A DNA stretch of 9,617 bases from Polynucleobacter sp. MWH-HuK1 (lineage in GTDB: Bacteria > Pseudomonadota > Gammaproteobacteria > Burkholderiales > Burkholderiaceae). The translations under genes were made by a program, and so were the position numbers. Below are positions 1 through 9,617 of this stretch, piece by piece; the stretch's first letter is position 1; every line of letters begins with the position of its first letter. Where the stretch lies: NCBI RefSeq assembly GCF_018881815.1, contig NZ_JACVPP010000001.1, positions 399,352-408,968 of the forward strand, read 5' to 3'. The notes below the pieces were generated by a model. That model saw only the letters and a list, made by a program, of their open reading frames with translations. It had not been told where the DNA came from and ran no database searches.

Positions 1-17
1 ATTTGACGCTTAACTTT

Positions 18-46
18 AAAGCCCGCTTATAAAGCGGGCTTTTTTA
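18..46. terminator. Bidirectional intrinsic-terminator-like hairpin at the 3' end of the recombinase gene
   Basis: The stem is AAAGCCCGC (18-26) paired with GCGGGCTTT (34-42), with a 7-nt loop. A T-run at 40-45 follows on the + strand and an A/T tract sits on the other side. The hairpin overlaps the recombinase stop codon (44-46, minus). Confidence 0.55.
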
Positions 47-613
47 TATCAACTCTACAGCTTTACGCAGCATATCGTCATTGGCATCTACATAGATTGC
101 TGTAGTAGATACAGATTTATGCCCCATTAGACGCATTAGCACACGCAGACTAGTGCCATTACTCGCTATGCCTGTTGCGTAAGTCCGCCTTCCGCTATGA
201 CTTGATGCTCCACTTACGCCTGCTTTGCGATACAACCAAAAGAACCATTGCGTAAGTGTATTAGCTGTAAATCCTTTTGACTTTTCTGTATAAAACAATG
301 GCAAAGACATATCTTTGACAGGATAGTGTTTTAAGTAGGTGCCTAATTCAGTTCGTAGTTTCTCATTGACAAATACAACTCGTGCCTTATTACCCTTAGT
401 TTGGTTGGCGGCTAAACGAATCTCACCCTTAATCGAACCATCCTCATTTCGCACATCACAAATTCTTAGCGCAGCAATTTCCCCTACCCGCATTCCACTC
501 CAATAGCTAGTAAGCAACATCGCCCTATTTCTAATGCTGTATTTCTGTTTAGTGCTGATATAGCGCAAAACCATATCAATTTCGCTTTGGTTTAGTGTTT
601 TAGCTTGCGCCAT
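44..613 (-). CDS. Short tyrosine recombinase/integrase (189 aa, catalytic domain only)
   Basis: The ORF shows the tyrosine-recombinase catalytic signature in order: R in GMRVGEI, K in TKGNKARVVF, H-x-x-R in SSHSGRRTYAT, and H...Y in GHKSVSTTAIY. It has no N-terminal SAM-like or arm-binding domain, so it is FimB/FimE-sized. Confidence 0.85.
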   Translation of the reverse strand: MAQAKTLNQSEIDMVLRYISTKQKYSIRNRAMLLTSYWSGMRVGEIAALRICDVRNEDGSIKGEIRLAANQTKGNKARVVFVNEKLRTELGTYLKHYPVKDMSLPLFYTEKSKGFTANTLTQWFFWLYRKAGVSGASSHSGRRTYATGIASNGTSLRVLMRLMGHKSVSTTAIYVDANDDMLRKAVELI

Positions 614-922
614 TTCGTCTCCCCATAAAAGAATTTATTGTTATTAGTATGTTTTCTTATGCGCAAAATTCCTACCGAAATTCAGCATTAAAAGAGTTTC
701 CATAAATCAATGACTTACAAATTCAGCGTGGGCTGAGATAAGAATTTCGCAATTTTCTTATGTCGCTATAGTCAATAAGCCACAGCAAAATAAGCCCTAC
801 AAGCAATTATTTAAGTATTCTGTAGCAAGAGCATTAAGTTAGTGAAGATTTAGCTTTGTAGATATGATTTAAAGCACAGCAGACAAATAAAGAATTAAAA
901 TCAAAAAAATATCAAAGCTAAG

Positions 923-1474
923 ATGAATAAAGATTTAGTAAAAAATAAATTCTACATAGGCGCTTACAGCGCAGCTATTCATTGGCATCTTTTACAAGCT
1001 AATGACTTTTCAACAACTTCAACAAAAGATTTAAAACTTTTAGCGTTGGGAAATAAATCATTTGGAATAATTGAAAATAAAATAACAAGTAAGCAATCAT
1101 TGATTTCAGATCCAACAAGAACAATTGTGGATTTATTGGATAAACCTAAACTAGTTGAAAATATATATTTGGTTGAAAAAGCATTAGTAAATTATGCGAA
1201 TTCGAAATATAAAAACTTTGAACTATTATTTAATTACGCTGAAAAATTTCGTAGTGGTGCTTTTTATAAGCGGCTTGGGTTTCTATTGGAACGAAACTAT
1301 CCCAATGAAAATGAAATATTAAGGCATTGTCTGACTAAGATTAGTCAAGGCTATAGCTATTTAGATACTAGAGAGACTTCAGATAAGATCATTTCCAAAT
1401 GGAATCTTTGGGTTTCTCAAGAAATGAAATCAAGTATAAAAAAAATACCCGCGCATATTTTTACTAGTCTGTAA
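923..1474 (+). CDS. AbiEi-like (type IV TA antitoxin / COG5340-like) C-terminal-domain protein, 183 aa, lacking the N-terminal wHTH
   Basis: Several motifs match my memory of AbiEi/COG5340 proteins: YIGAYSAAIHW, SDPTRTIVDLLDKPKL, YAEKFRSGAFYKRLGFLLE, SQGYSYLDT and KWNLWVS. The gene is very A+T-rich (18/60 G+C at 1081-1140). The Shine-Dalgarno sequence is weak. Confidence 0.6.
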   Translation: MNKDLVKNKFYIGAYSAAIHWHLLQANDFSTTSTKDLKLLALGNKSFGIIENKITSKQSLISDPTRTIVDLLDKPKLVENIYLVEKALVNYANSKYKNFELLFNYAEKFRSGAFYKRLGFLLERNYPNENEILRHCLTKISQGYSYLDTRETSDKIISKWNLWVSQEMKSSIKKIPAHIFTSL

Positions 1475-1517
1475 TTTAAGTTCAAGTGGTGATTTTTGAC
1501 CTATTGCCACCTTGTAT

Positions 1518-1589
1518 AGCGAACTGCGTTCGCTAGTGTTTCGTAAGTGCTTCGCACTCACTCACACATTTTTTCTCTTTTGATTTTTT
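1518..1589 (+). terminator. Probable terminator region for the AbiEi-like gene
   Basis: There are two hairpins: AGCGAAC-tgc-GTTCGCT (1518-1534) and AGTGC-ttc-GCACT (1546-1558). A T-rich tract TTTTTTCTCTTTTGATTTTTT (1569-1589) follows. Confidence 0.4.
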
Positions 1590-2166
1590 AGAGTTAATGT
1601 TTGAATGCTTTCGCTAGATTCAACCTACACTGAGCCTTAAGCAACAGGCTCAGTAATAGAAAAGGACTTTCGCTGAGTTCTTTACTACATCACTAAGGGC
1701 ATAACCATTTAGGTAAGGGCGGCTTCGCTGTCTCCTTTTATATGCGGCTGAAATGAAGCGCAACAATGACAACAGCATAAGTGGCTACCGTTGTCCTGTT
1801 TGAAAGTTGCTGTGTGAGCAGAGCTCTCTCGTGTTGTTATAGCACTATAGGCTATCAACTTTATGCTGATTAATTCTCAATTCAATTAGCTAGCAAAGCT
1901 AACGGCGTCCTGTTAAGGATAGTGAATATAAGTCTCTGCTACCGCACAGAATTTCCATCGCTGCGCACACCAATGGCCAGCTTTAGGGCGACATAACAAC
2001 TGAGTGTCGCTGCTCATTATCAGTAGTAGTAAATGGCATACAGATTGCTCTGCTGTCAAAGTTATTTATATGAGTGAAAAGAAATTCAGAATGAAAGTGG
2101 CGTTTTATTTGGTAAGACGGTAATTTGAGTTGAATTTCGGTTGTTCTCAATGCTTTTCCGAATTTA
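1590..2166 (+). other. ORF-free, G+C-enriched tract: candidate structured RNA, long leader or cis-acting DNA region
   Basis: The supplied six-frame track shows no ORF on either strand across 1475-2166. Stem-loops include TTGAAT/ATTCAA (1601-1623), CTGAGCC/GGCTCAG (1630-1653), GACAAC/GTTGTC (1768-1795), TTAGCT/AGCTAA (1886-1902) and GCGACA/TGTCGC (1988-2010). The pentamer TCGCT occurs six times. The strand is unknown. Confidence 0.3.
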
Positions 2167-2199
2167 TTGTTTTATTACACAAACAGAAAAGGAAGCACT

Positions 2200-2640
2200 A
2201 TGAGCACACTAGCAGCACTCAAACTAACATCAACTAAAAAGCCCAATCAAATTCCGCAGGTGCTACAGCGTAGAAATAAATTAGCTAAGCGTATTTGGGA
2301 GCAAATTGAATTGGCTAAAGCAGAACAAACAGGTGGTCAATTCGCCGTCAGTCGTTTTCGTAGCTATACAGACAAAGAAACAGGTTTGCGCAAACAAGTA
2401 GAAACACAAAAGCGTATTAAAGCGTGGTGGTTTGTAGGCGATAACGGTAAGCTAGCACTAGCAATTCGTTATGGTTCAAAAGTATTGGAGTTGGCGAAAG
2501 GAAAATTCGCAGTAGAGGTTGGAGCTTCCACTGAATTAGTTTCAACACTACAAGTAATTAAGTCCGCAGTTGAAGCGGGCGAACTAGACGCAGCTATTGA
2601 CTTTGCGGCTAACAAATTGCGCAGTGGATTTGTTAAATGA
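2200..2640 (+). CDS. Conserved-looking hypothetical protein, 146 aa, first gene of the small-protein operon
   Basis: ATG 2200 is preceded by AAAGGAAG (2187-2195). The track ORF begins at TTG 2167, but the ATG with the Shine-Dalgarno sequence is the better start. The composition is protein-like (MSTLAALKL...WWFVGDNGKLALAIRYGSKVLELAKGK...). I cannot name the family with confidence. Confidence 0.7.
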   Translation: MSTLAALKLTSTKKPNQIPQVLQRRNKLAKRIWEQIELAKAEQTGGQFAVSRFRSYTDKETGLRKQVETQKRIKAWWFVGDNGKLALAIRYGSKVLELAKGKFAVEVGASTELVSTLQVIKSAVEAGELDAAIDFAANKLRSGFVK

Positions 2641-2780
2641 AAAAATATAAGTTGTGGGTCCGCATAAATGGTTCGCAAACCGTATTCACTCTTATATTCG
2701 CTCAAAATGGTTTAGCAGCAAAGTCATTAGGCGAAGCGCAGTATGGCGTAGGTAATGTATTGAGTTTTAAAGAGGTGTGA
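2637..2780 (+). CDS. Small hypothetical protein, 47 aa, translationally coupled
   Basis: It is not in the ORF track because it is too short. Its ATG (2637-2639) overlaps the upstream TGA (2638-2640) as ATGA. The translation is MKKYKLWVRINGSQTVFTLIFAQNGLAAKSLGEAQYGVGNVLSFKEV, with the stop at 2778-2780. Confidence 0.5.
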   Translation: MKKYKLWVRINGSQTVFTLIFAQNGLAAKSLGEAQYGVGNVLSFKEV

Positions 2781-2786
2781 ATTGAG

Positions 2787-2987
2787 TTGCGTAAATACAC
2801 AATGCGCTTTTATGAATTTGCCACTAAGTCAATCAAACCAAAGCCACCTCTTACGCCCGCGCAGGCTAGAATTAACGCTCTTAAACAAGGTGTTGAAAAC
2901 AGCCGTCGCCAATTACAAGCAGAGCGTGAAAGACAGCGACGACAGCGTGATGCTGAGAGATTGCGTAAGCAGCTACAGCAACGCTAA
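2787..2987 (+). CDS. Small basic protein with an Arg/Gln-rich helical tail (66 aa from TTG 2787, or 61 aa from ATG 2802)
   Basis: AGAGG at 2771-2775 sits upstream of TTG 2787. The C-terminus RRQLQAERERQRRQRDAERLRKQLQQR looks like a real charged helix. The ORF competes with the N-terminal part of the 2782..3450 ORF. Confidence 0.5.
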   Translation: MRKYTMRFYEFATKSIKPKPPLTPAQARINALKQGVENSRRQLQAERERQRRQRDAERLRKQLQQR

Positions 2988-3159
2988 ACAGAAAATACCT
3001 AATTTGAATCAAACGACGGGTTTTCTGTTGGTTAGTAGTGCTATTACAAAATCATTGTTTTGTCGGACAAGAGGTATAGCAAAAATAATTCATAAAACTA
3101 TTGACTTTGATGTTGCCAATTGTGTAGAAGGAGCTTTATTCAATGTAAATGGAGACACT

Positions 3160-3450
3160 ATGAATTTGGAATTTCAATTTGCTCAATATCAGGTGAAAGT
3201 AAATGGATGGGGTGATGAGGAGGACCCGATCGTTATAAGTGGCGTAGATAGCCCCTCAGCTATGGCGGCAATTGAGCATCACTTAATTAATTTTGAAATG
3301 AAAATGAAGAATTTAGAGTGGCAATTGAAACTAAGCGAACACCTTACTACAAAAGACGAAAAGCATATTGCTAAATTAACGATTGATATTAAAACTACAG
3401 GTGAAACTAAAGAGTATTGGTTTGATATTACAGAGGCATTCAAATGTTAG
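3160..3450 (+). CDS. Hypothetical protein, 96 aa
   Basis: This internal ATG 3160 of the 222-aa track ORF is preceded by GGAGA (3151-3155). The upstream part of the track ORF overlaps the better 2787..2987 gene and then crosses an A+T-rich promoter-like tract (TTGACT at 3103-3108). Confidence 0.55.
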   Translation: MNLEFQFAQYQVKVNGWGDEEDPIVISGVDSPSAMAAIEHHLINFEMKMKNLEWQLKLSEHLTTKDEKHIAKLTIDIKTTGETKEYWFDITEAFKC

Positions 3451-3570
3451 CCATACATAAAGCAAGCGTAAATTATTTTTACGCTGCGTGGGACAAAAGC
3501 ACAACGCTTACAAAAAACTTTCCCCCTATGCTTTATCTCTTTGATTTTAAGTATCTCTTAGGCGGTCTAT

Positions 3571-3624
3571 CAGAGTTGAAAATCCTTGTGTCGGTGGTTC
3601 GATTCCGCCCCGGGCCACCAAGAA
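3571..3624 (+). repeat. tRNA-Phe 3' fragment (att-like site, copy A): anticodon loop to CCA plus AGAA
   Basis: The fragment contains TTGAAAA (3576-3582, GAA anticodon), TCCTT, variable loop GTGTC, T-arm GGTGG-TTCGATT-CCGCC (3593-3609), acceptor 3' strand CCGGGCC (3610-3616) and A-CCA (3617-3620). It closely parallels the 3' half of E. coli tRNA-Phe as I remember it. There is no matching acceptor 5' strand or D-arm upstream, so this is not a functional tRNA. Confidence 0.8.
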
Positions 3625-3629
3625 ATACC

Positions 3630-3659
3630 AAAACCACCTTCGGGTGGTTTTTTCTTTTT
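3630..3659 (+). terminator. Intrinsic terminator (UUCG tetraloop)
   Basis: The stem is AAAACCACC paired with GGTGGTTTT around a TTCG loop (3639-3642), followed by a T-run at 3648-3653. Confidence 0.8.
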
Positions 3660-3679
3660 GGGGCTCGAATTAAAACGGT

Positions 3680-3693
3680 AATAGGCATAGAAT
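3680..3693 (+). promoter_or_regulatory. Promoter module AATAGGCATAGAAT (-10-like TAGAAT at 3688-3693) upstream of the DUF2703-like gene
   Basis: An identical 14-mer recurs at 4190-4203. It is followed by GGGGG (3701-3705) and ATG 3712, and preceded by TTAAAACG, which resembles the right half of the 17-bp dyad. Confidence 0.45.
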
Positions 3694-3711
3694 ATTTTCA
3701 GGGGGCTTTAT

Positions 3712-4146
3712 ATGAAAACCATGCCAATAGTTTGGTATCGACTTGTAAAAGCGGGCGAGACTTGTATTCGTTGCGGGGAAACCCATCAAGAGCTTGAAAA
3801 GGCGTTAGCCAAGTTGAAATCGTCACTGCTGCCATTAGGTGTTGAGGTTACATTTGAAACTAAAGAGTTAACGGAGGCAGAGTTCAAAATCAATCCATCT
3901 AAATCAAATGAAGTTTGGATTGCGGGTAAGCCAGTGGAGGAGTGGCTGGGCGCTCGAGTTGGCATGACCCCCTGCTCTTCAGTTTGCGAAGGATCAAGCT
4001 GTCGCACACTTGAGGTTGACGGAAATAGCCATGAAACTATCCCTGAAGAGTTATTTGTAAAAGCAGGGCTGAGGGCAGCAAGTGAATTATTAACTTCTGA
4101 TACAGGCCCTAAATCTAATGCTTGTTGTGGCGGTTCTTGCGGATAA
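3712..4146 (+). CDS. DUF2703-like cysteine-rich putative metal-binding protein, 144 aa
   Basis: Motifs include GETCIRCGETHQELEKA, EVWIAGKPVEEWLGA, CSSVCEGSSCRTLEVDG and ETIPEELFVKAGL, matching my memory of DUF2703. The C-terminal tail is NACCGGSCG. The Shine-Dalgarno sequence is good. Confidence 0.6.
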   Translation: MKTMPIVWYRLVKAGETCIRCGETHQELEKALAKLKSSLLPLGVEVTFETKELTEAEFKINPSKSNEVWIAGKPVEEWLGARVGMTPCSSVCEGSSCRTLEVDGNSHETIPEELFVKAGLRAASELLTSDTGPKSNACCGGSCG

Positions 4147-4163
4147 GTTTTAGTATTGGACAG

Positions 4164-4180
4164 TGTCGTTTAAAACGACA
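4164..4180. promoter_or_regulatory. 17-bp dyad operator candidate, copy 1 (TGTCGTTT-A-AAACGACA)
   Basis: It has perfect 8-bp inverted arms and a 1-nt centre. It lies 30 nt upstream of ATG 4210 and immediately upstream of the TTAAAT/TAGAAT -10-like boxes. Confidence 0.55.
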
Positions 4181-4189
4181 AAATCATTA

Positions 4190-4203
4190 AATAGGCATAG
4201 AAT
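4190..4203 (+). promoter_or_regulatory. Promoter module AATAGGCATAGAAT (-10-like TAGAAT at 4198-4203)
   Basis: It is identical to 3680-3693. Only 6 nt separate TAGAAT from ATG 4210, and no Shine-Dalgarno sequence lies between them. Confidence 0.45.
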
Positions 4204-4209
4204 TAAAGT

Positions 4210-4545
4210 ATGAGAAAGATTTGTATTGCTCTCTGCCTAAGTTTATTTGCCAGCCTCATTCATGCGGTTGGCATGCCTACGTCTAACGATGGGCTAGATC
4301 AATTACATTTCCAGCATGTCATTCAGCATGATTGCCATACTCAGGCTGATACAAAAATTGATAAAACACATCAATCTACTAATCACCAAGCCCATCATCA
4401 ATGTTGCTTAGGGGTAGTTGCTAACCTATCTTCTAATCAATACAGGCAACCTGACTTTTCTAGTCATTTTGTTCCTCATGTTCCTCAATTAATTGTTGAG
4501 GCAATTCCTAGTCATATCTTCAAGCCACCAAGATTCATTAGTTAA
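4210..4545 (+). CDS. Secreted His-rich small protein, 111 aa, putative periplasmic metal binder
   Basis: It has the signal peptide MRKICIALCLSLFASLIHA. The mature part has 11 His and 3 Cys, including HHQCC. It sits in the metal cluster. Confidence 0.55.
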   Translation: MRKICIALCLSLFASLIHAVGMPTSNDGLDQLHFQHVIQHDCHTQADTKIDKTHQSTNHQAHHQCCLGVVANLSSNQYRQPDFSSHFVPHVPQLIVEAIPSHIFKPPRFIS

Positions 4546-4604
4546 TTAAGTAGTTAACTAATTTTTTGTGGCATTAAGCCACAGTAATCTATTGGAGAAA
4601 TCTT

Positions 4605-5279
4605 ATGAACATGACTCACTACATGGAGTTGTTGGCTGTTAACCAGCCTTGGAATTTAATTATTTTTATGGCCATTCCAGTCATTCTGGCTGAGACTTTG
4701 GCAATCACCGAGTTGTACCTATTATTCACTCGCAAGTTTGATGGAGCGGTTTATTACCTGAATCGTTTTGCTGGCATTGCTGTAGGCATTTATTTTGTTG
4801 GAATCATCATTTACATCATGACGAATGCGGTAATCCCAATTACCAAGGCGGGTGAATGGAGAACAGTGATTGATGTGATTGCTGTGGGTACTTACCTCAT
4901 AGCAGGATTGCCGCTCATTTGGATTGCTTTACAGGAAATGGGATTAGTCAATAAAGCATTGGATCAAATGGGTAAGCTAAAGATTCATGCGATCTGTGTT
5001 GCCTTGTTCTTGGTGTTTGGACACATCGCTATGATTGCCGGCATGGTTGATCCAAGCATTCTTGGTTATAAAGGTGCGAGTGCTCACCAAATGAGTTCAG
5101 GTGCGGATGATCATGAGTTCTGTCACCCCGAAAAGCATGAAAAGATGATGAAACAACATCAGAAAATGATGGGCAATATGCCTTCCAATCAAATGCCTAA
5201 GAACAGCGGACAGGTGCCTATGAATGATGGGCAAATGAAACAAAACATGCCAACGAACAACCAAGGACATACGCACTAA
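4605..5279 (+). CDS. Polytopic inner-membrane protein with a Met/His-rich C-terminal tail, 224 aa
   Basis: GGAG precedes the ATG. There are about 5-6 hydrophobic segments. The tail reads HPEKHEKMMKQHQKMMGNMPSNQMPKNSGQVPMNDGQMKQNMPTNNQGHTH, and Met-rich tracts of this kind are typical of Cu(I)-binding proteins. Confidence 0.65.
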   Translation: MNMTHYMELLAVNQPWNLIIFMAIPVILAETLAITELYLLFTRKFDGAVYYLNRFAGIAVGIYFVGIIIYIMTNAVIPITKAGEWRTVIDVIAVGTYLIAGLPLIWIALQEMGLVNKALDQMGKLKIHAICVALFLVFGHIAMIAGMVDPSILGYKGASAHQMSSGADDHEFCHPEKHEKMMKQHQKMMGNMPSNQMPKNSGQVPMNDGQMKQNMPTNNQGHTH

Positions 5280-5286
5280 TGAGAGG

Positions 5287-5308
5287 ATTGCCCGCAAGGG
5301 CAATTTTT
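5287..5308 (+). terminator. Intra-cluster intrinsic terminator or attenuator
   Basis: The stem is ATTGCCC (5287-5293) paired with GGGCAAT (5298-5304), with a GCAA loop. The T-run reaches 5308. Confidence 0.6.
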
Positions 5309-5334
5309 ACTTGTTGAAAGGAATGGTTAAAAAA

Positions 5335-5796
5335 ATGAAATTAATAAATCAACATAGAAGGCTGATCTTTTTTGGATTGGCTTTATTGCCAAGCTTGAGT
5401 TTTGGCGCAACACAAAAGCCTGTCATTACGATGTGGAAGAGCCCCACCTGCGGTTGTTGTAAAGACTGGGCGGACCATGTGGAAAAGAATGGCTTTGCTG
5501 TTAAAACCTATACAGATGGCAATGACGAAATTCGTAAGAAGTTAGGTATGCCTATTCAGTTTGGCTCTTGCCATACAGCCTTAATTGGTGGCTATGTCAT
5601 TGAAGGACATGTTCCTGCTAAAGAAATTAAGCGACTTTTGGTGGAAAAACCTAAAGCCATTGGTTTAGCCGTTCCTGCTATGCCGCTTGGCTCTCCTGGT
5701 ATGGATGGGCCTGAGTACAAGGGCAGAAAAGACCCCTACGATGTTTTGTTAATTGGATTAAATGGCAAGCCCAGTGTTTATCAATCCTACAAATAA
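5335..5796 (+). CDS. copG: CopG-like DUF411 periplasmic metal-binding protein
   Basis: It has the signal peptide MKLINQHRRLIFFGLALLPSLSFG. Motifs SPTCGCCKDW, SCHTALIGGYVIEGHVPA and GLAVPAMPLGSPGM are hallmark DUF411/CopG motifs. The track start TTG 5311 and ATG 5323 are possible alternative starts. Confidence 0.85.
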   Translation: MKLINQHRRLIFFGLALLPSLSFGATQKPVITMWKSPTCGCCKDWADHVEKNGFAVKTYTDGNDEIRKKLGMPIQFGSCHTALIGGYVIEGHVPAKEIKRLLVEKPKAIGLAVPAMPLGSPGMDGPEYKGRKDPYDVLLIGLNGKPSVYQSYK

Positions 5797-5807
5797 AGGA
5801 ATTTGAA

Positions 5808-6074
5808 ATGAGCGAAATTAACTTAGATGTAAGCGGTATGACTTGTGGCTCTTGCGTCAAACATGTCACTAACGCACTTAAACCATTAGAAGGTGTACAG
5901 GATGTATCTGTAGACTTAGCTACCGGAAAAGTTAAGGTGACAAGAGCCACCGAAAAGGCGGATGACTTAATTGCGGCCTTAATAGAGGATGGTTATCCAG
6001 CTCAATTGGATACTGGTGGCACCACTCATGCCAAGCAGGGCGGCGGCTGTGGTGGTGGGTGTAAGTGTTCATGA
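5808..6074 (+). CDS. Heavy-metal-associated (HMA) domain protein, CopZ/MerP-like, with a Cys/Gly-rich tail, 88 aa
   Basis: It has the GMTCGSCVKHV metal-binding loop and a ferredoxin-like HMA layout. There is no signal peptide. The tail is GGGCGGGCKCS. AAGGA precedes the ATG. Confidence 0.85.
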   Translation: MSEINLDVSGMTCGSCVKHVTNALKPLEGVQDVSVDLATGKVKVTRATEKADDLIAALIEDGYPAQLDTGGTTHAKQGGGCGGGCKCS

Positions 6075-6091
6075 TGTCGTTTTATGAGACA
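6075..6091. promoter_or_regulatory. Degenerate copy of the 17-bp dyad (TGTCGTTTTATGAGACA, 14/17)
   Basis: The left arm and centre are identical to the 8488-8504 copy, and the right arm has 3 mismatches. It lies directly after the HMA stop and 33 nt before the dehalogenase ATG. Confidence 0.3.
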
Positions 6092-6123
6092 ATGGCTGTT
6101 CATAAGAATAATTAGGAGCCGGT

Positions 6124-6816
6124 ATGTATAAGTTGATAGCTTTTGATGCCTATGGGACATTGCTTGATGTGTATTCCATGGGGCAGTTAGCGGAAGAATT
6201 GTTTCCGGGGCACGGTCAAGCATTGAATTTAATGTGGCGTGATCGCCAAATTGAATACACCCGTTTAGTGACAATGAGTGATCCTAACCCAAACGGTAGC
6301 AAACACTATCTTTCATTTTGGGAGATCACCATTCGCTCATTACGTTATGTATGTAAGCGCATGAGCTTACACCTCACTCCAGAATACGAGAGGCGACTGA
6401 TGGATCAGTATGCTAAGTTGAAGAGCTTTGACGACAGCCTGGAAGTGCTCAAGTCAGTAAAACAAAAAGGTATTTCAACGGCTATTTTATCTAATGGAAG
6501 CACAGAAATGCTTGCCACCGTTATAGAAAGCAATGGCTTAAAACCCTATTTGGATAAAGTTGTCACCGTTGAAGATGTGCGCTTATTTAAAACCGCCCCC
6601 CAAGCCTATGAGCTATTACTAAAAGCTTTTCCTGTGAAAAAGGAAGAGATTCTGTTTGTCTCTAGTAATGCTTGGGATGCCTTAGCGGCAAAGTGGTATG
6701 GTTTTGATGTATTTTGGGTGAACCGTTTGAATCATCCGTTTGAAGAGATTGGCGAAAAGCCAAGCTATGAAGGTAGTTCTCTAAATCAGGTTCTTGATGT
6801 TATTGAGATAAATTAA
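6124..6816 (+). CDS. Type II (S)-2-haloacid dehalogenase, HAD superfamily, 230 aa
   Basis: It has the nucleophile motif FDAYGTLLDV, plus RDRQIEYT, SNGS, FKTAPQAY and SSNAWDALAAKWYGF. This is the full set of L-2-haloacid dehalogenase signature residues. AGGAG precedes the ATG. Confidence 0.85.
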   Translation: MYKLIAFDAYGTLLDVYSMGQLAEELFPGHGQALNLMWRDRQIEYTRLVTMSDPNPNGSKHYLSFWEITIRSLRYVCKRMSLHLTPEYERRLMDQYAKLKSFDDSLEVLKSVKQKGISTAILSNGSTEMLATVIESNGLKPYLDKVVTVEDVRLFKTAPQAYELLLKAFPVKKEEILFVSSNAWDALAAKWYGFDVFWVNRLNHPFEEIGEKPSYEGSSLNQVLDVIEIN

Positions 6817-6827
6817 TAAACTTTTTT

Positions 6828-6891
6828 GGCCGGGTTGCTGTTGGATTAAGCAGCCTCAGTCTCGGTCGATTCCGCCCCGGGCCACCAAGAA
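6828..6891 (+). repeat. tRNA-derived att-like site, copy B (core 6866-6891)
   Basis: The core TCGATTCCGCCCCGGGCCACCAAGAA is identical to copy A. The upstream GGCCGGG (6828-6834) can pair with the acceptor 3' strand. It is separated from the core by a GCTGTT/AGCAGC hairpin (6837-6854). Confidence 0.75.
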
Positions 6892-6895
6892 CACC

Positions 6896-6919
6896 AAAAC
6901 CACCTTCGGGTGGTTTTTT
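6896..6919 (+). terminator. Intrinsic terminator, same sequence as at 3630-3659
   Basis: The sequence is AAAACCACC-TTCG-GGTGGTTTTTT. Confidence 0.8.
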
Positions 6920-6962
6920 CTTTTCTGGGCGTAGAGTATAGAAAGCGCACTAGGAGAGACCT

Positions 6963-7478
6963 ATGACTACAACCATACCCACCAATCAAGAACTTCAAGT
7001 TTTAGACGCTTTGCGTGCTCACAGAAAAAGGCATCGCCAAGGACTCCCAACTCAAATTACGGCTCATGTCGAGCAACCCATAGGACCATTGACTGTTGGG
7101 CAAAAAATATCGGATGCGGTGGCAAGAACGGTAGGCTCTTGGAAGTTCATCATTTTTCAAAGCGTTTGTATTTTGGGTTGGATTACTTATAACTCTGTAA
7201 ACAATGACAATGTTTGGGATCCATACCCTTTCATTCTTTTGAATTTAATGCTGTCATTTCAAGCGGCTTATACAGCGCCAGCAATCATGATGAGTCAGAA
7301 TCGACTCTCGGAGATAGATCGACAACATGCTAATAACGACTTTGAAGTCAATGTAAAGGCGGAGCTAGAAATCGAATTGCTTCATCAAAAGATCGACATG
7401 ATGAAAGAAAAAGAGCTTTATGCTTTAACTAAGGCGGTTGAGGCTTTGAGCGAGAAATTAGATAGCTATAGAGGGTAG
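6963..7478 (+). CDS. DUF1003-like membrane protein, 171 aa
   Basis: Motifs include GSWKFIIFQS, DPYPFILLNLMLSFQAAYTAPAIMMSQNR, DRQHANNDFEVNVKAELEI and LHQKIDMM, matching my memory of DUF1003. AGGAG precedes the ATG. Confidence 0.7.
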   Translation: MTTTIPTNQELQVLDALRAHRKRHRQGLPTQITAHVEQPIGPLTVGQKISDAVARTVGSWKFIIFQSVCILGWITYNSVNNDNVWDPYPFILLNLMLSFQAAYTAPAIMMSQNRLSEIDRQHANNDFEVNVKAELEIELLHQKIDMMKEKELYALTKAVEALSEKLDSYRG

Positions 7479-7492
7479 GATAGGAACTCCTC

Positions 7493-7527
7493 GGCCCTGG
7501 TTCGATTGCGCCCCGGGCCACCAAGAA
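7493..7527 (+). repeat. tRNA-derived att-like site, copy C (core 7502-7527, one mismatch G7508)
   Basis: The arm GGCCCTGG (7493-7500) is an imperfect inverted repeat of the acceptor 3' strand CCCGGGCC. The core is TCGATTGCGCCCCGGGCCACCAAGAA. Confidence 0.75.
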
Positions 7528-7532
7528 ACATC

Positions 7533-7556
7533 AAAACCACCTTCGGGTGGTTTTTT
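7533..7556. terminator. Intrinsic terminator shared by the convergent DUF1003-like and sugE genes
   Basis: The sequence is AAAACCACC-TTCG-GGTGGTTTTTT. The A-run on the left makes it usable from both strands. The sugE stop is at 7571. Confidence 0.75.
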
Positions 7557-7570
7557 CATTTATAGCTCAG

Positions 7571-7885
7571 CTAGCCCATCTTCAGAAAAATGACTCCAAG
7601 CAGAATCAATGCGGCCCCGATCCAACGAATTGGAATATTGGGGTCACCAAAAACTAAAACGCCAATAGCAAAAGTACCCACTGCGCCAATGGATGTCCAT
7701 ACCGCATACGCTGTTCCGATAGGAATGCCTTTTAATGAATACCAAAGCAGGAATCCACTCAGTGCCATGCTTGTTCCAGCCAAAGCAATGCCCAAGATTT
7801 TCATGTTGGGATTGTCTGATAGCTTTAATCCAAGAGGCCAGCCAATCTCAAAAACACCTGCCATTAATAAAGATAGCCAATACAT
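7571..7885 (-). CDS. sugE: SMR-family SugE/Gdx-type small multidrug/guanidinium exporter, 104 aa
   Basis: MYWLSLLMAGVFEIGWPLGLK and PIGTAYAVWTSIGAVG align to E. coli SugE motifs. I chose the start at the internal ATG 7885. The 38-codon extension of the track ORF (to 7999) runs into the att-like core and is rejected. Confidence 0.85.
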   Translation of the reverse strand: MYWLSLLMAGVFEIGWPLGLKLSDNPNMKILGIALAGTSMALSGFLLWYSLKGIPIGTAYAVWTSIGAVGTFAIGVLVFGDPNIPIRWIGAALILLGVIFLKMG

Positions 7886-7960
7886 GTTGGGCCTAGAGTT
7901 AACCAAAGAATTTACTTTATCAAATTTTCTCGCGCCATAAAACAGGATTAGACATCTTCG

Positions 7961-7994
7961 GGCCTGGCTCGATTCCGCCCCGGGCCACCAAGAA
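7961..7994 (+). repeat. tRNA-derived att-like site, copy D (core 7969-7994)
   Basis: The arm GGCCTGG (7961-7967) pairs with CCGGGCC (7980-7986) over 7 bp including one G-U. The core is identical to copies A and B. Confidence 0.75.
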
Positions 7995-8000
7995 CTCAAA

Positions 8001-8030
8001 CAGTCGCCTTTCGGCGGCTGTTTTCGTTTT
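8001..8030 (+). terminator. Intrinsic terminator, different sequence from those after copies A-C
   Basis: The stem is CAGTCGCC paired with GGCGGCTG around TTTC, followed by TTTTCGTTTT. Confidence 0.65.
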
Positions 8031-8076
8031 CACTCTCTAATCACAGTGCTAGACGCTATTGGACTTTATATATCGC

Positions 8077-8093
8077 TGTCGTTTAAAACGACA
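8077..8093. promoter_or_regulatory. 17-bp dyad operator candidate, copy 2
   Basis: The sequence is TGTCGTTTAAAACGACA. On the minus strand it is followed after 4 nt (GCGA) by TATATA (8067-8072). It lies 5 nt beyond the stop of the 8099..8449 gene. Confidence 0.5.
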
Positions 8094-8098
8094 AATCA

Positions 8099-8449
8099 TC
8101 ACAACAGTTCAATTCCAAAGCCCTTCATCAGCAAAGCAAACAGTCCAAAACATATAACCGTCACAACAACACTTGCTCCCATCGTCAGCCAAAAACCTAG
8201 TCTTGGTAGCAAATAGGGAAATAGTAAAAACATCGGCAATGTTGGAATGACATACCAAAAAGTGTAATAAGCGTGGTTTGCTATTTTCTCTTCCGATTGA
8301 TTCTCAATGTAGAGCCAAGTAAGAGTAAGTAATGTCATCAAGGGCAATGCCGCAATGAATCCCCCTAACTTATCGCTTCGCTTAGCAACTTCGCTAATGA
8401 ATACAATCATCCCTGCTGTCAGTAGATATTTTGTGATTATCCAAGTCAT
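8099..8449 (-). CDS. Small 4-TM inner-membrane protein, DUF3147-like, 116 aa
   Basis: The profile is hydrophobic, with FISEVAKRSDKLGGFIAALPLMTLLTL near the N-terminus. The family name is recalled only weakly. AAGG precedes the ATG. Confidence 0.6.
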   Translation of the reverse strand: MTWIITKYLLTAGMIVFISEVAKRSDKLGGFIAALPLMTLLTLTWLYIENQSEEKIANHAYYTFWYVIPTLPMFLLFPYLLPRLGFWLTMGASVVVTVICFGLFALLMKGFGIELL

Positions 8450-8487
8450 AGACGCCTTAAGTGTTTTTGCTTGCCCAATTATAGGAA

Positions 8488-8504
8488 TGTCGTTTTAAAC
8501 GACA
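8488..8504. promoter_or_regulatory. 17-bp dyad operator candidate, copy 3
   Basis: The sequence is TGTCGTTTTAAACGACA. On the minus strand it is followed after 4 nt (TTCC) by a consensus TATAAT (8478-8483), about 29 nt upstream of ATG 8449. Confidence 0.6.
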
Positions 8505-8539
8505 TTACAAATATATGCGCATAGACGTATGTATGTGAA

Positions 8540-9349
8540 CTACTTTCTTTGATTCAGATTGCTTGACCCCCATTGATCCAGCTGTCTCTGATTATGGGCG
8601 GCCACACCTTCAATAGAATCCTGAGGTAATTGTTTGAGGCACTCTGCTAACGATTCAGGACTAAGTTTTTCGGCAGGCTTATTTTGTTTTATCTCTTGTG
8701 GCGATTTGCCATCCCAAGCAAAGGGATTATTAAATGATGGGGGATCAGGTAAACAGTCATCGCTATAAATTGGCGTGTCATCAGTAGCAAATGGCGTAAA
8801 CGAAATTGTCTTTTCAAAGATGAGTGGTTTCCCAGTTGGCGTGGGCGGTGGCGGTGGCATTGAATAAATGGCTTTGCGAGCAAGAGCCTCTGCTTTATCA
8901 GATGTCTTCCAGAGGGTTTCAACTCTAGTGATGCTGCCATTTGGAGCAATCTCGATTCTAAATCTCACTTGCCCTTGATCGACACCTTCAACGGCTGTTC
9001 CCATCATGCTACGCACTTGCTTGCCCCAAGTGTGTCTGTAGCCTTTACTATTTTTTAGTGTGTATGTTGAGGCAAATGCCCATTCTTCTGCTGTTGGAGC
9101 ATTTGGGGCAGCTTGTGTTGCTGGAGCTTTCGTTGTGAGCGTTTGATTCTTTTGGGTGGTGACCGGTTCTTGTTTTTCTTCGGGCTCATTTAGTTTGATG
9201 ACAACGACATCTTCTTTAACTTTTTTTAGCGGCTTTGCTGTTGATGGAGTCCATAAAAGTAGAACGCAAAAATGTAAAGCTAAAGAAAGTACAAGCGCCG
9301 ACTTAAAAGCAGACTGTGGCGTTTGAATAAGGCGATTAAGACGGAACAA
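8540..9349 (-). CDS. TonB-family-like protein with an extra C-terminal extension, 269 aa
   Basis: It has an N-terminal TM segment (ALVLSLALHFCVLLLW) and a charged, Pro-containing linker (EPEEKQEPV...). A TonB-C-like block follows (GQVRFRIEIAPNGSITRVETLWKTSDKAEALARKAIYSMPPPPPTP). The start is TTG 9349, 3 nt after the upstream stop, and is uncertain. Confidence 0.5.
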   Translation of the reverse strand: MFRLNRLIQTPQSAFKSALVLSLALHFCVLLLWTPSTAKPLKKVKEDVVVIKLNEPEEKQEPVTTQKNQTLTTKAPATQAAPNAPTAEEWAFASTYTLKNSKGYRHTWGKQVRSMMGTAVEGVDQGQVRFRIEIAPNGSITRVETLWKTSDKAEALARKAIYSMPPPPPTPTGKPLIFEKTISFTPFATDDTPIYSDDCLPDPPSFNNPFAWDGKSPQEIKQNKPAEKLSPESLAECLKQLPQDSIEGVAAHNQRQLDQWGSSNLNQRK

Positions 9350-9352
9350 TCA

Positions 9353-9617
9353 CTACCCGTCTTGTTTGGCTAGCTTCAGATTCATATTGAGCCAATTAGG
9401 TATGCCATCTTCTGCTCGTACCGCCTTGAATCCTTTTTCTCTGAGGCGCTTTACAGCTTCATAAGATAGAACGCAGTATGTGCCTCTACAGTAAGCAACA
9501 ATCGTTTTAGATTTTGGAAAATCTCCTAATCTCTCTTCTAATTCCTCAAGGGTGATATTGAGCGCCCCCTCAAGATGAGAGTGAGCGTACTCTTCACTAG
9601 GCCGCACATCTAAAAGT
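9353..9617 (-). CDS. Rhodanese-domain protein, 5'-truncated by the window edge (probably the C-terminal domain of an ArsR/SmtB-rhodanese fusion regulator)
   Basis: The frame stays open to position 9617 (..LLDVRPSEEY). The M in the track is an internal GTG. The motifs DVRPSEEYAHSHLEGALNI and AYCRGTYCVLSYEAV resemble ArsR-rhodanese fusion proteins as I remember them. Confidence 0.65.
   Translation of the reverse strand, partial: LLDVRPSEEYAHSHLEGALNITLEELEERLGDFPKSKTIVAYCRGTYCVLSYEAVKRLREKGFKAVRAEDGIPNWLNMNLKLAKQDG

Follow-up and report, generated by a model that had tools for sequence, protein, structure and literature searches.

Although classical mobile elements are scarce in streamlined planktonic bacteria, the gene content of these organisms is highly variable, and the question raised by the locus described here is how small adaptive genes enter and leave such genomes. 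The locus lies in Polynucleobacter sp. MWH-HuK1, within a stretch of 9,617 nucleotides (NCBI RefSeq assembly GCF_018881815.1, contig NZ_JACVPP010000001.1, positions 399,352 to 408,968) that is referred to throughout as the window, and in which four copies of a 26-bp core, matching the 3' end of a tRNA-Phe gene, separate a series of small gene modules. The modules probably represent a tRNA-Phe-anchored array of integrase-less cassettes, flanked by attachment (att) sites and moved site-specifically at the T-loop by an enzyme supplied in trans. Comparison with related genomes and lake metagenomes, the loci and contigs of which are designated L followed by a number, reveals a common array anatomy, a conserved cassette site, a diversity of cassettes, partner exchange at the core and one cycle whose size is that predicted.

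All four cores (TCGATTCCGCCCCGGGCCACCAAGAA) lie in direct orientation on the + strand, at the positions (Table 1) assigned to them in an earlier, sequence-only reading of the window, and are spaced 3267, 636 and 467 bp apart; the third copy carries one mismatch (C7>G), and the chance expectation for the core in the window is 0 (200 shuffles). Each core is followed by a terminator-like hairpin, which had been placed within about 10 nt and was measured here to begin 4-6 nt past the core. Copies 1-3 share one common hairpin (AAAACCACCTTCGGGTGGTTTT, designated T1) and the hairpin of copy 4 differs. The description of the cores as tRNA-Phe 3' ends also holds, since they equal the stretch from the T-loop to the CCA end of tRNA-Phe(GAA) genes at related loci. 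No intact tRNA was detected within the window by ARAGORN. Two other identities of the core were considered and set aside, namely a known RNA family, the Rfam match of copy 2 to Phe_leader being weak and terminator-driven (26 bits against a cut-off of 55), and a site of the Xer/dif type, the core being unlike dif as judged by eye alone. The intervals between the cores do hold a metal module and the single DUF1003 and sugE genes, as first read, but the 3267-bp interval contains six open reading frames (ORFs) rather than the seven genes originally counted, and six genes are also called in L262. That the three modules have no integrase of their own was borne out by searches with Pfam and jackhmmer, in which no recombinase was found in any of the three window cassettes.

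The left-hand side of cassette-type junctions is defined by a conserved motif. Counts of cores, loci, ends and partners are lower bounds throughout; they come from a genome scan, in which the core was searched for in one genome per species, and from a metagenome scan for the cassette-type junction. At least 259 distinct cassette ends carry, directly to the left of the core, a 24-nt motif (AGGATyAGgCATCCTcGGCCCTGG, with an optional T next to it), conservation of which ends at position -24; the metagenome search pattern demanded ATCCT, so that the conservation of this pentamer is inflated. The motif corresponds to the anticodon arm and T-stem of tRNA-Phe in a diverged form that is 2 nt shorter and bears fixed substitutions, and is therefore one shared derived site, which independent decay did not produce. 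A folded, attC-like site was considered and rejected, since a candidate GGAT-N5-ATCC stem shows no covariation across these ends and its pairing is at the level of shuffled sequences (for example, 0.57 observed against 0.61). What is conserved is a sequence signal and not an attC-like fold. To the right of cassette-type cores, the terminators T1, T2 and T3 were recorded at least 104, 55 and 22 times, respectively, and these terminators are also found behind intact tRNA-Phe genes of various genomes, so that target and cassette agree over the whole T-loop-to-CCA stretch and often over the terminator too, for a total of about 62 bp. Every cassette opens with a terminator-like hairpin, and therefore no common promoter can drive the array and the cassettes would need promoters of their own.

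Arrays with this site are present in Polynucleobacter and in related metagenome-assembled genomes from lakes, with six cores in each of L077 and L102 and five in each of L072, L076 and L118, and cassette-type junctions occur in at least 119 lake-metagenome contigs, with up to seven cores per contig. Within a locus all cores have a single orientation, and a 22-26-bp core follows every unit. Units range from 392 to 3267 bp, with a median of about 0.8 kb, and mostly contain one ORF, usually in the sense of the tRNA, with some genes opposite. Cassettes with 85-99% identity are common to different species, in which they occupy unlike neighbourhoods, and arrays differ by whole cassettes. In Oxalobacteraceae, tRNA-Phe genes are single, some with one island attR. 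Cargo sampled with Pfam includes glutathione S-transferase, lipid A acyltransferase, cupredoxin, CDF cation efflux, a DMT-family transporter, a ChrR-type cupin, aldo/keto reductase, glutamate dehydrogenase, a BLUF blue-light sensor and a family-2 glycosyltransferase, together with BrnT and Phd/YefM toxin-antitoxin components. The toxin-antitoxin cassettes measure about 0.62-0.66 kb (BrnT in L049, L077 and L102; Phd/YefM in L011, L049 and at 2538-2780 of L001). Similar toxin-antitoxin cassettes occur in chromosomal integrons, where they are thought to stabilise the array.

A core with its terminator might alternatively be a small dispersed repeat between genes, of the repetitive extragenic palindromic (REP) or miniature inverted-repeat transposable element type, and not a module boundary at all. 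At least 156 loci carry cassette-type cores and 26 of them also contain an intact tRNA-Phe; the cores lie 3' of the tRNA in all 26 and 5' of it in none. Cores were found only in same-orientation clusters, large Polynucleobacter contigs have one locus each, and contexts differ by whole cassettes rather than by the repeat alone, so that the scatter over unrelated intergenic regions by which the sequence-only reading would have recognised a REP-like repeat is not seen. Two cases could be cited for a dispersed repeat. In L100, two genes that are separated by a site in the window stand next to each other (see below), and in Polynucleobacter sp. JS-Fieb-80-E5 cores are present at two places on one contig, about 345 kb apart. 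The second of these stretches lies at a contig end with an IS3-family transposase pair directly upstream (L010 flipped 2931-4081, start of contig 2), which suggests a rearrangement mediated by the insertion sequence or an assembly break. Overall, a dispersed repeat is a highly improbable explanation of the cores.

Exchange of neighbours at the core is seen in the modules of the window themselves, each of which is found elsewhere with different neighbours and joined exactly at the core, the boundary at which the sequence-only reading had advised comparing strains. An identical copy of the DUF1003 cassette has as its left neighbour an intact tRNA-Phe (L006), a tRNA half (L001), a DUF6268 cassette (L002) or the HAD gene (window and L003), and the SMR cassette has as its right neighbour either the chromosomal flank (window and L005) or a DUF6268 cassette (L001, L002 and L004). 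The metal/HAD module has at least three other left partners and at least one other right partner, again joined at the core, and in every window-module comparison the break in similarity falls at the core. Across all loci, at least 24 left flanks have two or more right partners and at least 18 right flanks have two or more left partners, these counts covering tRNA-type flanks plus cassette ends. Partner exchange is also observed where the 26-bp core alone is common, at junctions of T1 as against T2 or T3. Single-nucleotide polymorphisms at core positions 7, 11 and 14 go with the right-hand partner in the few informative cases, so that the exchange point maps to the core's 5' (T-loop) edge, and we infer that the recombination is site-specific in nature. 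The expectation that direct repeats would release circles finds a counterpart in the metagenome contig L002, the ends of which overlap by 127 bp, as is typical of a cycle in a k=127 assembly, and which has a period of 2336 bp, equal to the distance from the first to the fourth core in the L001 array. This is the size expected if core-by-core recombination excised a three-cassette array as a circle or duplicated it in tandem.

In the mechanism proposed here, repeated site-specific insertions into the 3' part of tRNA-Phe would have built up an 'additive' genomic island in a Polynucleobacter-like freshwater betaproteobacterium, and the region would be the part of this island nearest the tRNA. Copies 2-4 would be the junctions of three integrase-less cassettes, each consisting of a terminator, cargo and the degenerate 24-nt tRNA-Phe-like motif. 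Circularisation of a cassette would bring its two ends together on either side of the core, giving a site of about 90 bp that would match the chromosomal target over the T-loop-to-CCA stretch and, in many cases, over the terminator of the tRNA as well. A tyrosine integrase acting in trans may then swap strands at the core's 5' (T-loop) edge; circles could enter the tRNA gene itself or any one of the internal cores, and the direct cores would allow cassettes to be excised or duplicated. Such mobilisation in trans would be the behaviour of cis-mobilizable elements (CIMEs).

Copy 1 belongs to a different att class from copies 2-4, with identity that begins in the anticodon loop. It matches tRNA-Phe exactly from the anticodon loop (about position 3576) to CCA and its alignment with intact tRNA-Phe genes, at about 90% identity, extends back to position 3557, the D-arm region being degenerate, and it is not called as a tRNA by ARAGORN. 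The metagenome contigs L128 and L129 are nearly identical to the left part of the window (Table 1) and have the same junction at copy 1. Their gene order runs from an intact tRNA-Phe through a 418-aa tyrosine integrase (Phage_integrase), a methyltransferase, MjaV, EVE, AAA, the 189-aa recombinase and DUF6641 to that junction, which identifies copy 1 as the attR of a 10.8-kb island with its own integrase. The intact tRNA-Phe that the sequence-only reading had proposed to look for to the left of the window is thus present in L128 and L129 at the start of the island, about 10 kb left of window position 1, with the 418-aa integrase about 9 kb left. The 189-aa recombinase (int189), noted in that reading as the only recombinase in the window, is indeed the only one there, but it belongs to this island, the 418-aa integrase of which lies outside the window. 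In L128 no cassettes follow the attR, so that the same island sits in strains that differ in downstream content. The 10.8-kb island would be a recent one.

The enzyme that might move the cassettes was sought by tblastn and jackhmmer with three tyrosine-recombinase seeds against all ORFs of about 260 loci, and the largest 'cassettes' and 20 cargo proteins were scanned against Pfam. Islands at tRNA-Phe repeatedly carry one integrase family (42-84% identity to the 418-aa protein), often with an int189 homologue, and all islands with this integrase end in junctions of the anticodon-loop class. int189 is Xer-like, comprises a catalytic domain only and lies below every curated cut-off (49.8 bits against 265 for the integron-integrase). 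It is found together with a full-length integrase of the 418-aa family on the tRNA-Phe islands of L028, L128, L172, L175 and L206, and a homologue is also present in L147 and L249, where the large integrase falls off-contig. Islands of this sort thus carry two recombinases. Nothing found links int189 specifically to cassettes. No recombinase was found 5' of tRNA-Phe or within arrays. Similarly, no integrase-bearing element with a cassette-type motif was found, the att identity of the resident islands beginning in the anticodon loop. L232 was examined as a candidate for such an element and rejected, as it holds a truncated N-terminal integrase fragment by a decayed tRNA half. A phage or satellite carrying the cassette-type site was also rejected, as viral contigs gave no match to that site; their nine plain-core matches are ordinary tRNA or prophage junctions of the anticodon-loop class. 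In L172 and L214 an integrase island starts directly after a cassette-type core, and cassettes and islands therefore interleave at one hotspot. In L234, a lake-metagenome contig that also has a cassette-type core, positions 3926-6914 contain three tandem tyrosine recombinase genes, which resemble a tyrosine-recombinase-trio element.

The likeness to an integron-style cassette array, to which the sequence-only reading had drawn attention, concerns the layout only. Cassettes mostly contain one ORF, the sites have one orientation, hundreds of cassette types exist, toxin-antitoxin cassettes (here BrnT and Phd/YefM) are a feature in common with chromosomal integrons, conservation of the site extends well past the tRNA-identical part, and int189 recurs on tRNA-Phe islands. 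A dedicated integron-like platform, in which a specific recombinase (encoded elsewhere in the genome, or int189 itself) captures cassettes at the tRNA-Phe T-loop through the site of about 90 bp, would account for these features. Against it, no integrase adjoins either the tRNA or the arrays, int189 is missing at most array loci and, where present, is always part of an island with its own integrase, a folded attC-type site has no support from covariation, and terminator-led cassettes need their own promoters; such a platform is accordingly considered quite unlikely. Of four hallmarks of integrons, an array of mostly single-ORF cassettes with sites in one orientation was found, and an intI gene beside the insertion site, attC sites conserved in structure as imperfect palindromes, and promoterless cassettes served by one promoter were not. 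Sedentary chromosomal integrons are further comparable in their long arrays, in sites that are similar within a lineage and in the insertion expected at the proximal end; they differ from the present arrays, in which the site is conserved in sequence and unfolded and the target is a functional tRNA. That Polynucleobacter and related lake bacteria have a true cassette-capture system, integron-like in its working and made of other parts (the T-loop of the functional tRNA-Phe gene as target, hundreds of mostly single-gene cassettes with sites of about 90 bp that combine a degenerate tRNA half, the exact tRNA tail and a terminator, and a specific recombinase encoded elsewhere that would insert, excise and shuffle them), is possible, although on balance doubtful.

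Several observations weigh against cassettes moved site-specifically in trans. No recombinase was found inside cassette-type units or beside the tRNA in about 190 loci, serine and DDE types being covered by Pfam sampling only. The sole integrase family seen belongs to the other att class and may not be the cognate enzyme, and the number of cassette-type sites found in viral contigs was 0. Instead of a circle, the 2336-bp cycle may reflect a tandem duplication or mixed strains. In L100, moreover, the HAD and DUF1003 homologues adjoin, with 38 bp between them where the window has a site of about 125 bp; the two homologues (L100 positions 5963-7263 against window positions 6124-7478) have 72-75% nucleotide identity, lie about 4.5 kb beyond the L100 tRNA-Phe array and retain a promoter-like stretch 5' of DUF1003 that is shared with the window. 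Such sites are either lost from old cassettes or acquired between resident genes, and the insertion model does not account for the arrangement. Lastly, cassettes that share T1 are identical over about 62 bp, which is long enough for RecA-dependent exchange.

This last point favours an explanation in which the cores are passive scars of integrations by larger islands that later decayed, and swaps, losses and duplications arise through RecA between repeats of 26-62 bp, including after DNA uptake, with no site-specific enzyme involved. The cassettes have no linked recombinase, degenerate cores that fuse adjacent cassettes are common (for example, L077 as against L118), the truncated integrase of L232 lies by a decayed tRNA half, and similar island decay is described in Prochlorococcus (bioRxiv 10.1101/2020.12.28.424599), all of which would be expected of such scars. 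Random decay, however, would not yield at least 259 ends with one derived 24-nt motif that is not that of the tRNA, and partners are swapped even where they have just the 26-bp core in common (T1 against T2 or T3). The core polymorphisms that follow the right partner in informative cases point to a fixed exchange point, and precise ends are present on single-gene units down to 392 bp. Decay combined with RecA-dependent exchange is therefore regarded as unlikely, though by no means negligible.

Site-specific movement of integrase-less cassettes at tRNA-Phe is thus the reading preferred here, and the kind of system is already published, in the form of additive islands, CIME accretion and the Dehalococcoides ssrA islands. 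The remark that the arrangement is not a described system was consequently too strong (PMC4898812, PMC10872708, PMC5704250, PMC3146451). In Alteromonas, additive islands at tRNA genes contain cassettes marked by partial-tRNA repeats, and a heavy-metal island is located at tRNA-Phe (PMC4898812). In fGI-2 of 'Ca. Methylopumilus', which lies at tRNA-Lys, units between 330 bp and 42 kb in size are delimited by copies of the final 20 nt of that tRNA (PMC10872708). The Polynucleobacter arrays resemble these in a tRNA hotspot that is fixed across relatives, in a core after every unit, in variable cassette content, in near-identical cassettes shared across strains and species, and in metal and resistance cargo. 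The published reports are descriptive, without a defined end motif, built-in terminator, crossover position or cycle, whereas most units here consist of one gene, and their conserved site spans about 90 bp.

The ssrA islands of Dehalococcoides consist of tandem units downstream of this tRNA-like gene, with a 20-bp direct repeat of its 3' end and insertion at the T-loop; a conserved motif that is unlike the gene lies just 5' of each repeat, and about half of the units have no integration module and are proposed to be cis-mobilizable (PMC3146451). Tandem units, a 3'-end repeat, a non-gene motif upstream, T-loop insertion and integrase-less members are all shared with the present arrays. In Dehalococcoides, however, half of the units encode the serine integrase DsiB and units are several kb or longer, whereas the cassette-type units described here have no recombinase and mostly measure 0.4-1 kb. 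CIMEs and tandem accretion are known from the ICESt1/ICESt3 family, in which decayed integrative and conjugative elements (ICEs) or integrative and mobilizable elements (IMEs) are related to the resident element (PMC5704250). Like CIMEs, the cassettes have flanks of the attL/attR type, contain no integration or transfer genes in those screened, share the 3' end of a target gene, in a tandem arrangement, with an element that has an integrase, and would be expected to excise through an integrase in trans. No sign of ICE or IME descent was seen in them, and their att class is unlike that of the co-resident island. Finally, the tycheposons and islands of Prochlorococcus (bioRxiv 10.1101/2020.12.28.424599) share with the arrays a streamlined planktonic host, growth at tRNA genes, partial tRNAs between successive elements and adaptive cargo, but they carry an integrase and usually a replication module, and the cassettes carry neither. 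No description of the Polynucleobacter tRNA-Phe array was found in the literature searched, which excluded a paper on Polynucleobacter genomic islands (PMC5244307) that might mention the locus.

What is distinctive here is the combination of units that are very small and for the most part contain one gene, a defined site that spans about 90 bp and includes a terminator, cassette diversity and no linked integrase. The locus provides a sequence-defined model, with a tRNA-Phe T-loop target, a defined cassette site and cultured hosts, for the entry and exit of small adaptive genes in streamlined planktonic genomes, and the mechanism behind 'additive islands' becomes testable in it. Hundreds of natural cassettes are available, with functions in metal handling, efflux, redox enzymes and toxin-antitoxin pairs. 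The defined site could be used for mining the flexible gene pool of lake metagenomes and possibly as a tool for single-copy insertion.

Table 1. Coordinates of the features of the window (strand and basis are given where reported).
Feature	Position	Strand	Basis
Right-hand 3.6 kb of the 10.8-kb integrase-bearing tRNA-Phe island	1-3556		99.4% identity of 1-3662 to L128/L129
int189, 189-aa tyrosine recombinase, catalytic domain only	44-613	-	Pfam
183-aa ORF (in the 10.8-kb island)	923-1474		
Polynucleobacter-1 RNA motif (in the 10.8-kb island)	1878-2015	-	Rfam
DUF6641 gene (in the 10.8-kb island)	2197-2640		Pfam
Copy 1, attR of the 10.8-kb island, pseudo-tRNA-Phe	3557-3624 (core 3599-3624)	+	
Cassette 1, 3.27 kb: T1 terminator (3630-3651), six genes, degenerate left motif (6842-6865)	3625-6865	+	
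Cassette 1 genes: DUF2703; 111-aa protein; DUF6803	3712-4146; 4210-4545; 4605-5279		Pfam
Cassette 1 genes, continued: DUF411; HMA; HAD hydrolase	5335-5796; 5808-6074; 6124-6816		Pfam
Core copy 2, cassette-type junction	6866-6891	+	
Cassette 2, 0.64 kb: T1 terminator (6896-6917), DUF1003 gene (6963-7478), left motif (7477-7501)	6892-7501	+	
Core copy 3, cassette-type junction, C7>G variant	7502-7527	+	
Cassette 3, 0.47 kb: T1 terminator (7533-7554), SMR/SugE-like gene (7571-7885, -), left motif (7944-7968)	7528-7968	-	
Core copy 4 (7969-7994) and distinct terminator (7998-8023), distal end of array	7969-8023	+	
Conserved chromosomal flank: 116-aa membrane protein, TonB-like 269-aa protein, rhodanese	8046-9617	-	

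The chromosomal flank beyond the distal end of the array is homologous, with a nucleotide identity of 68-71%, to the sequence on the right-hand side of the L100 and L110 tRNA-Phe arrays. Some further observations concern the surroundings of the arrays. The contig L056 (Polynucleobacter sinensis MWH-HuW1 contig 16, 7052 bp) has a 130-bp terminal overlap and may be a 6.9-kb circle, either an excised island or a small plasmid; it contains an att site of the tRNA-Phe-half type, a HAD homologue, an AraC-like regulator and an AAA protein, and an integrase was not found in it. An intergenic 17-bp palindrome, TGTCGTTT(A/T)AAACGACA, occurs in the window at 4164-4182, 8077-8095 and 8488-8506, in L001 at about 1328 and in L056 at about 6860. 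Two of the copies lie about 30-55 bp 5' of gene starts, at 4210 (+) and 8449 (-), and a related sequence (GTCCTTTAAAAGGAC) is present in L001, L056 and L102; the palindrome could be an operator or a lineage-specific repeat. Within the 10.8-kb island, the Polynucleobacter-1 RNA motif scores 94.8 bits against a cut-off of 37 and lies between the 183-aa ORF and the DUF6641 gene, from which it is divergent. Its location on a tRNA-Phe island beside DUF6641 may offer a lead.

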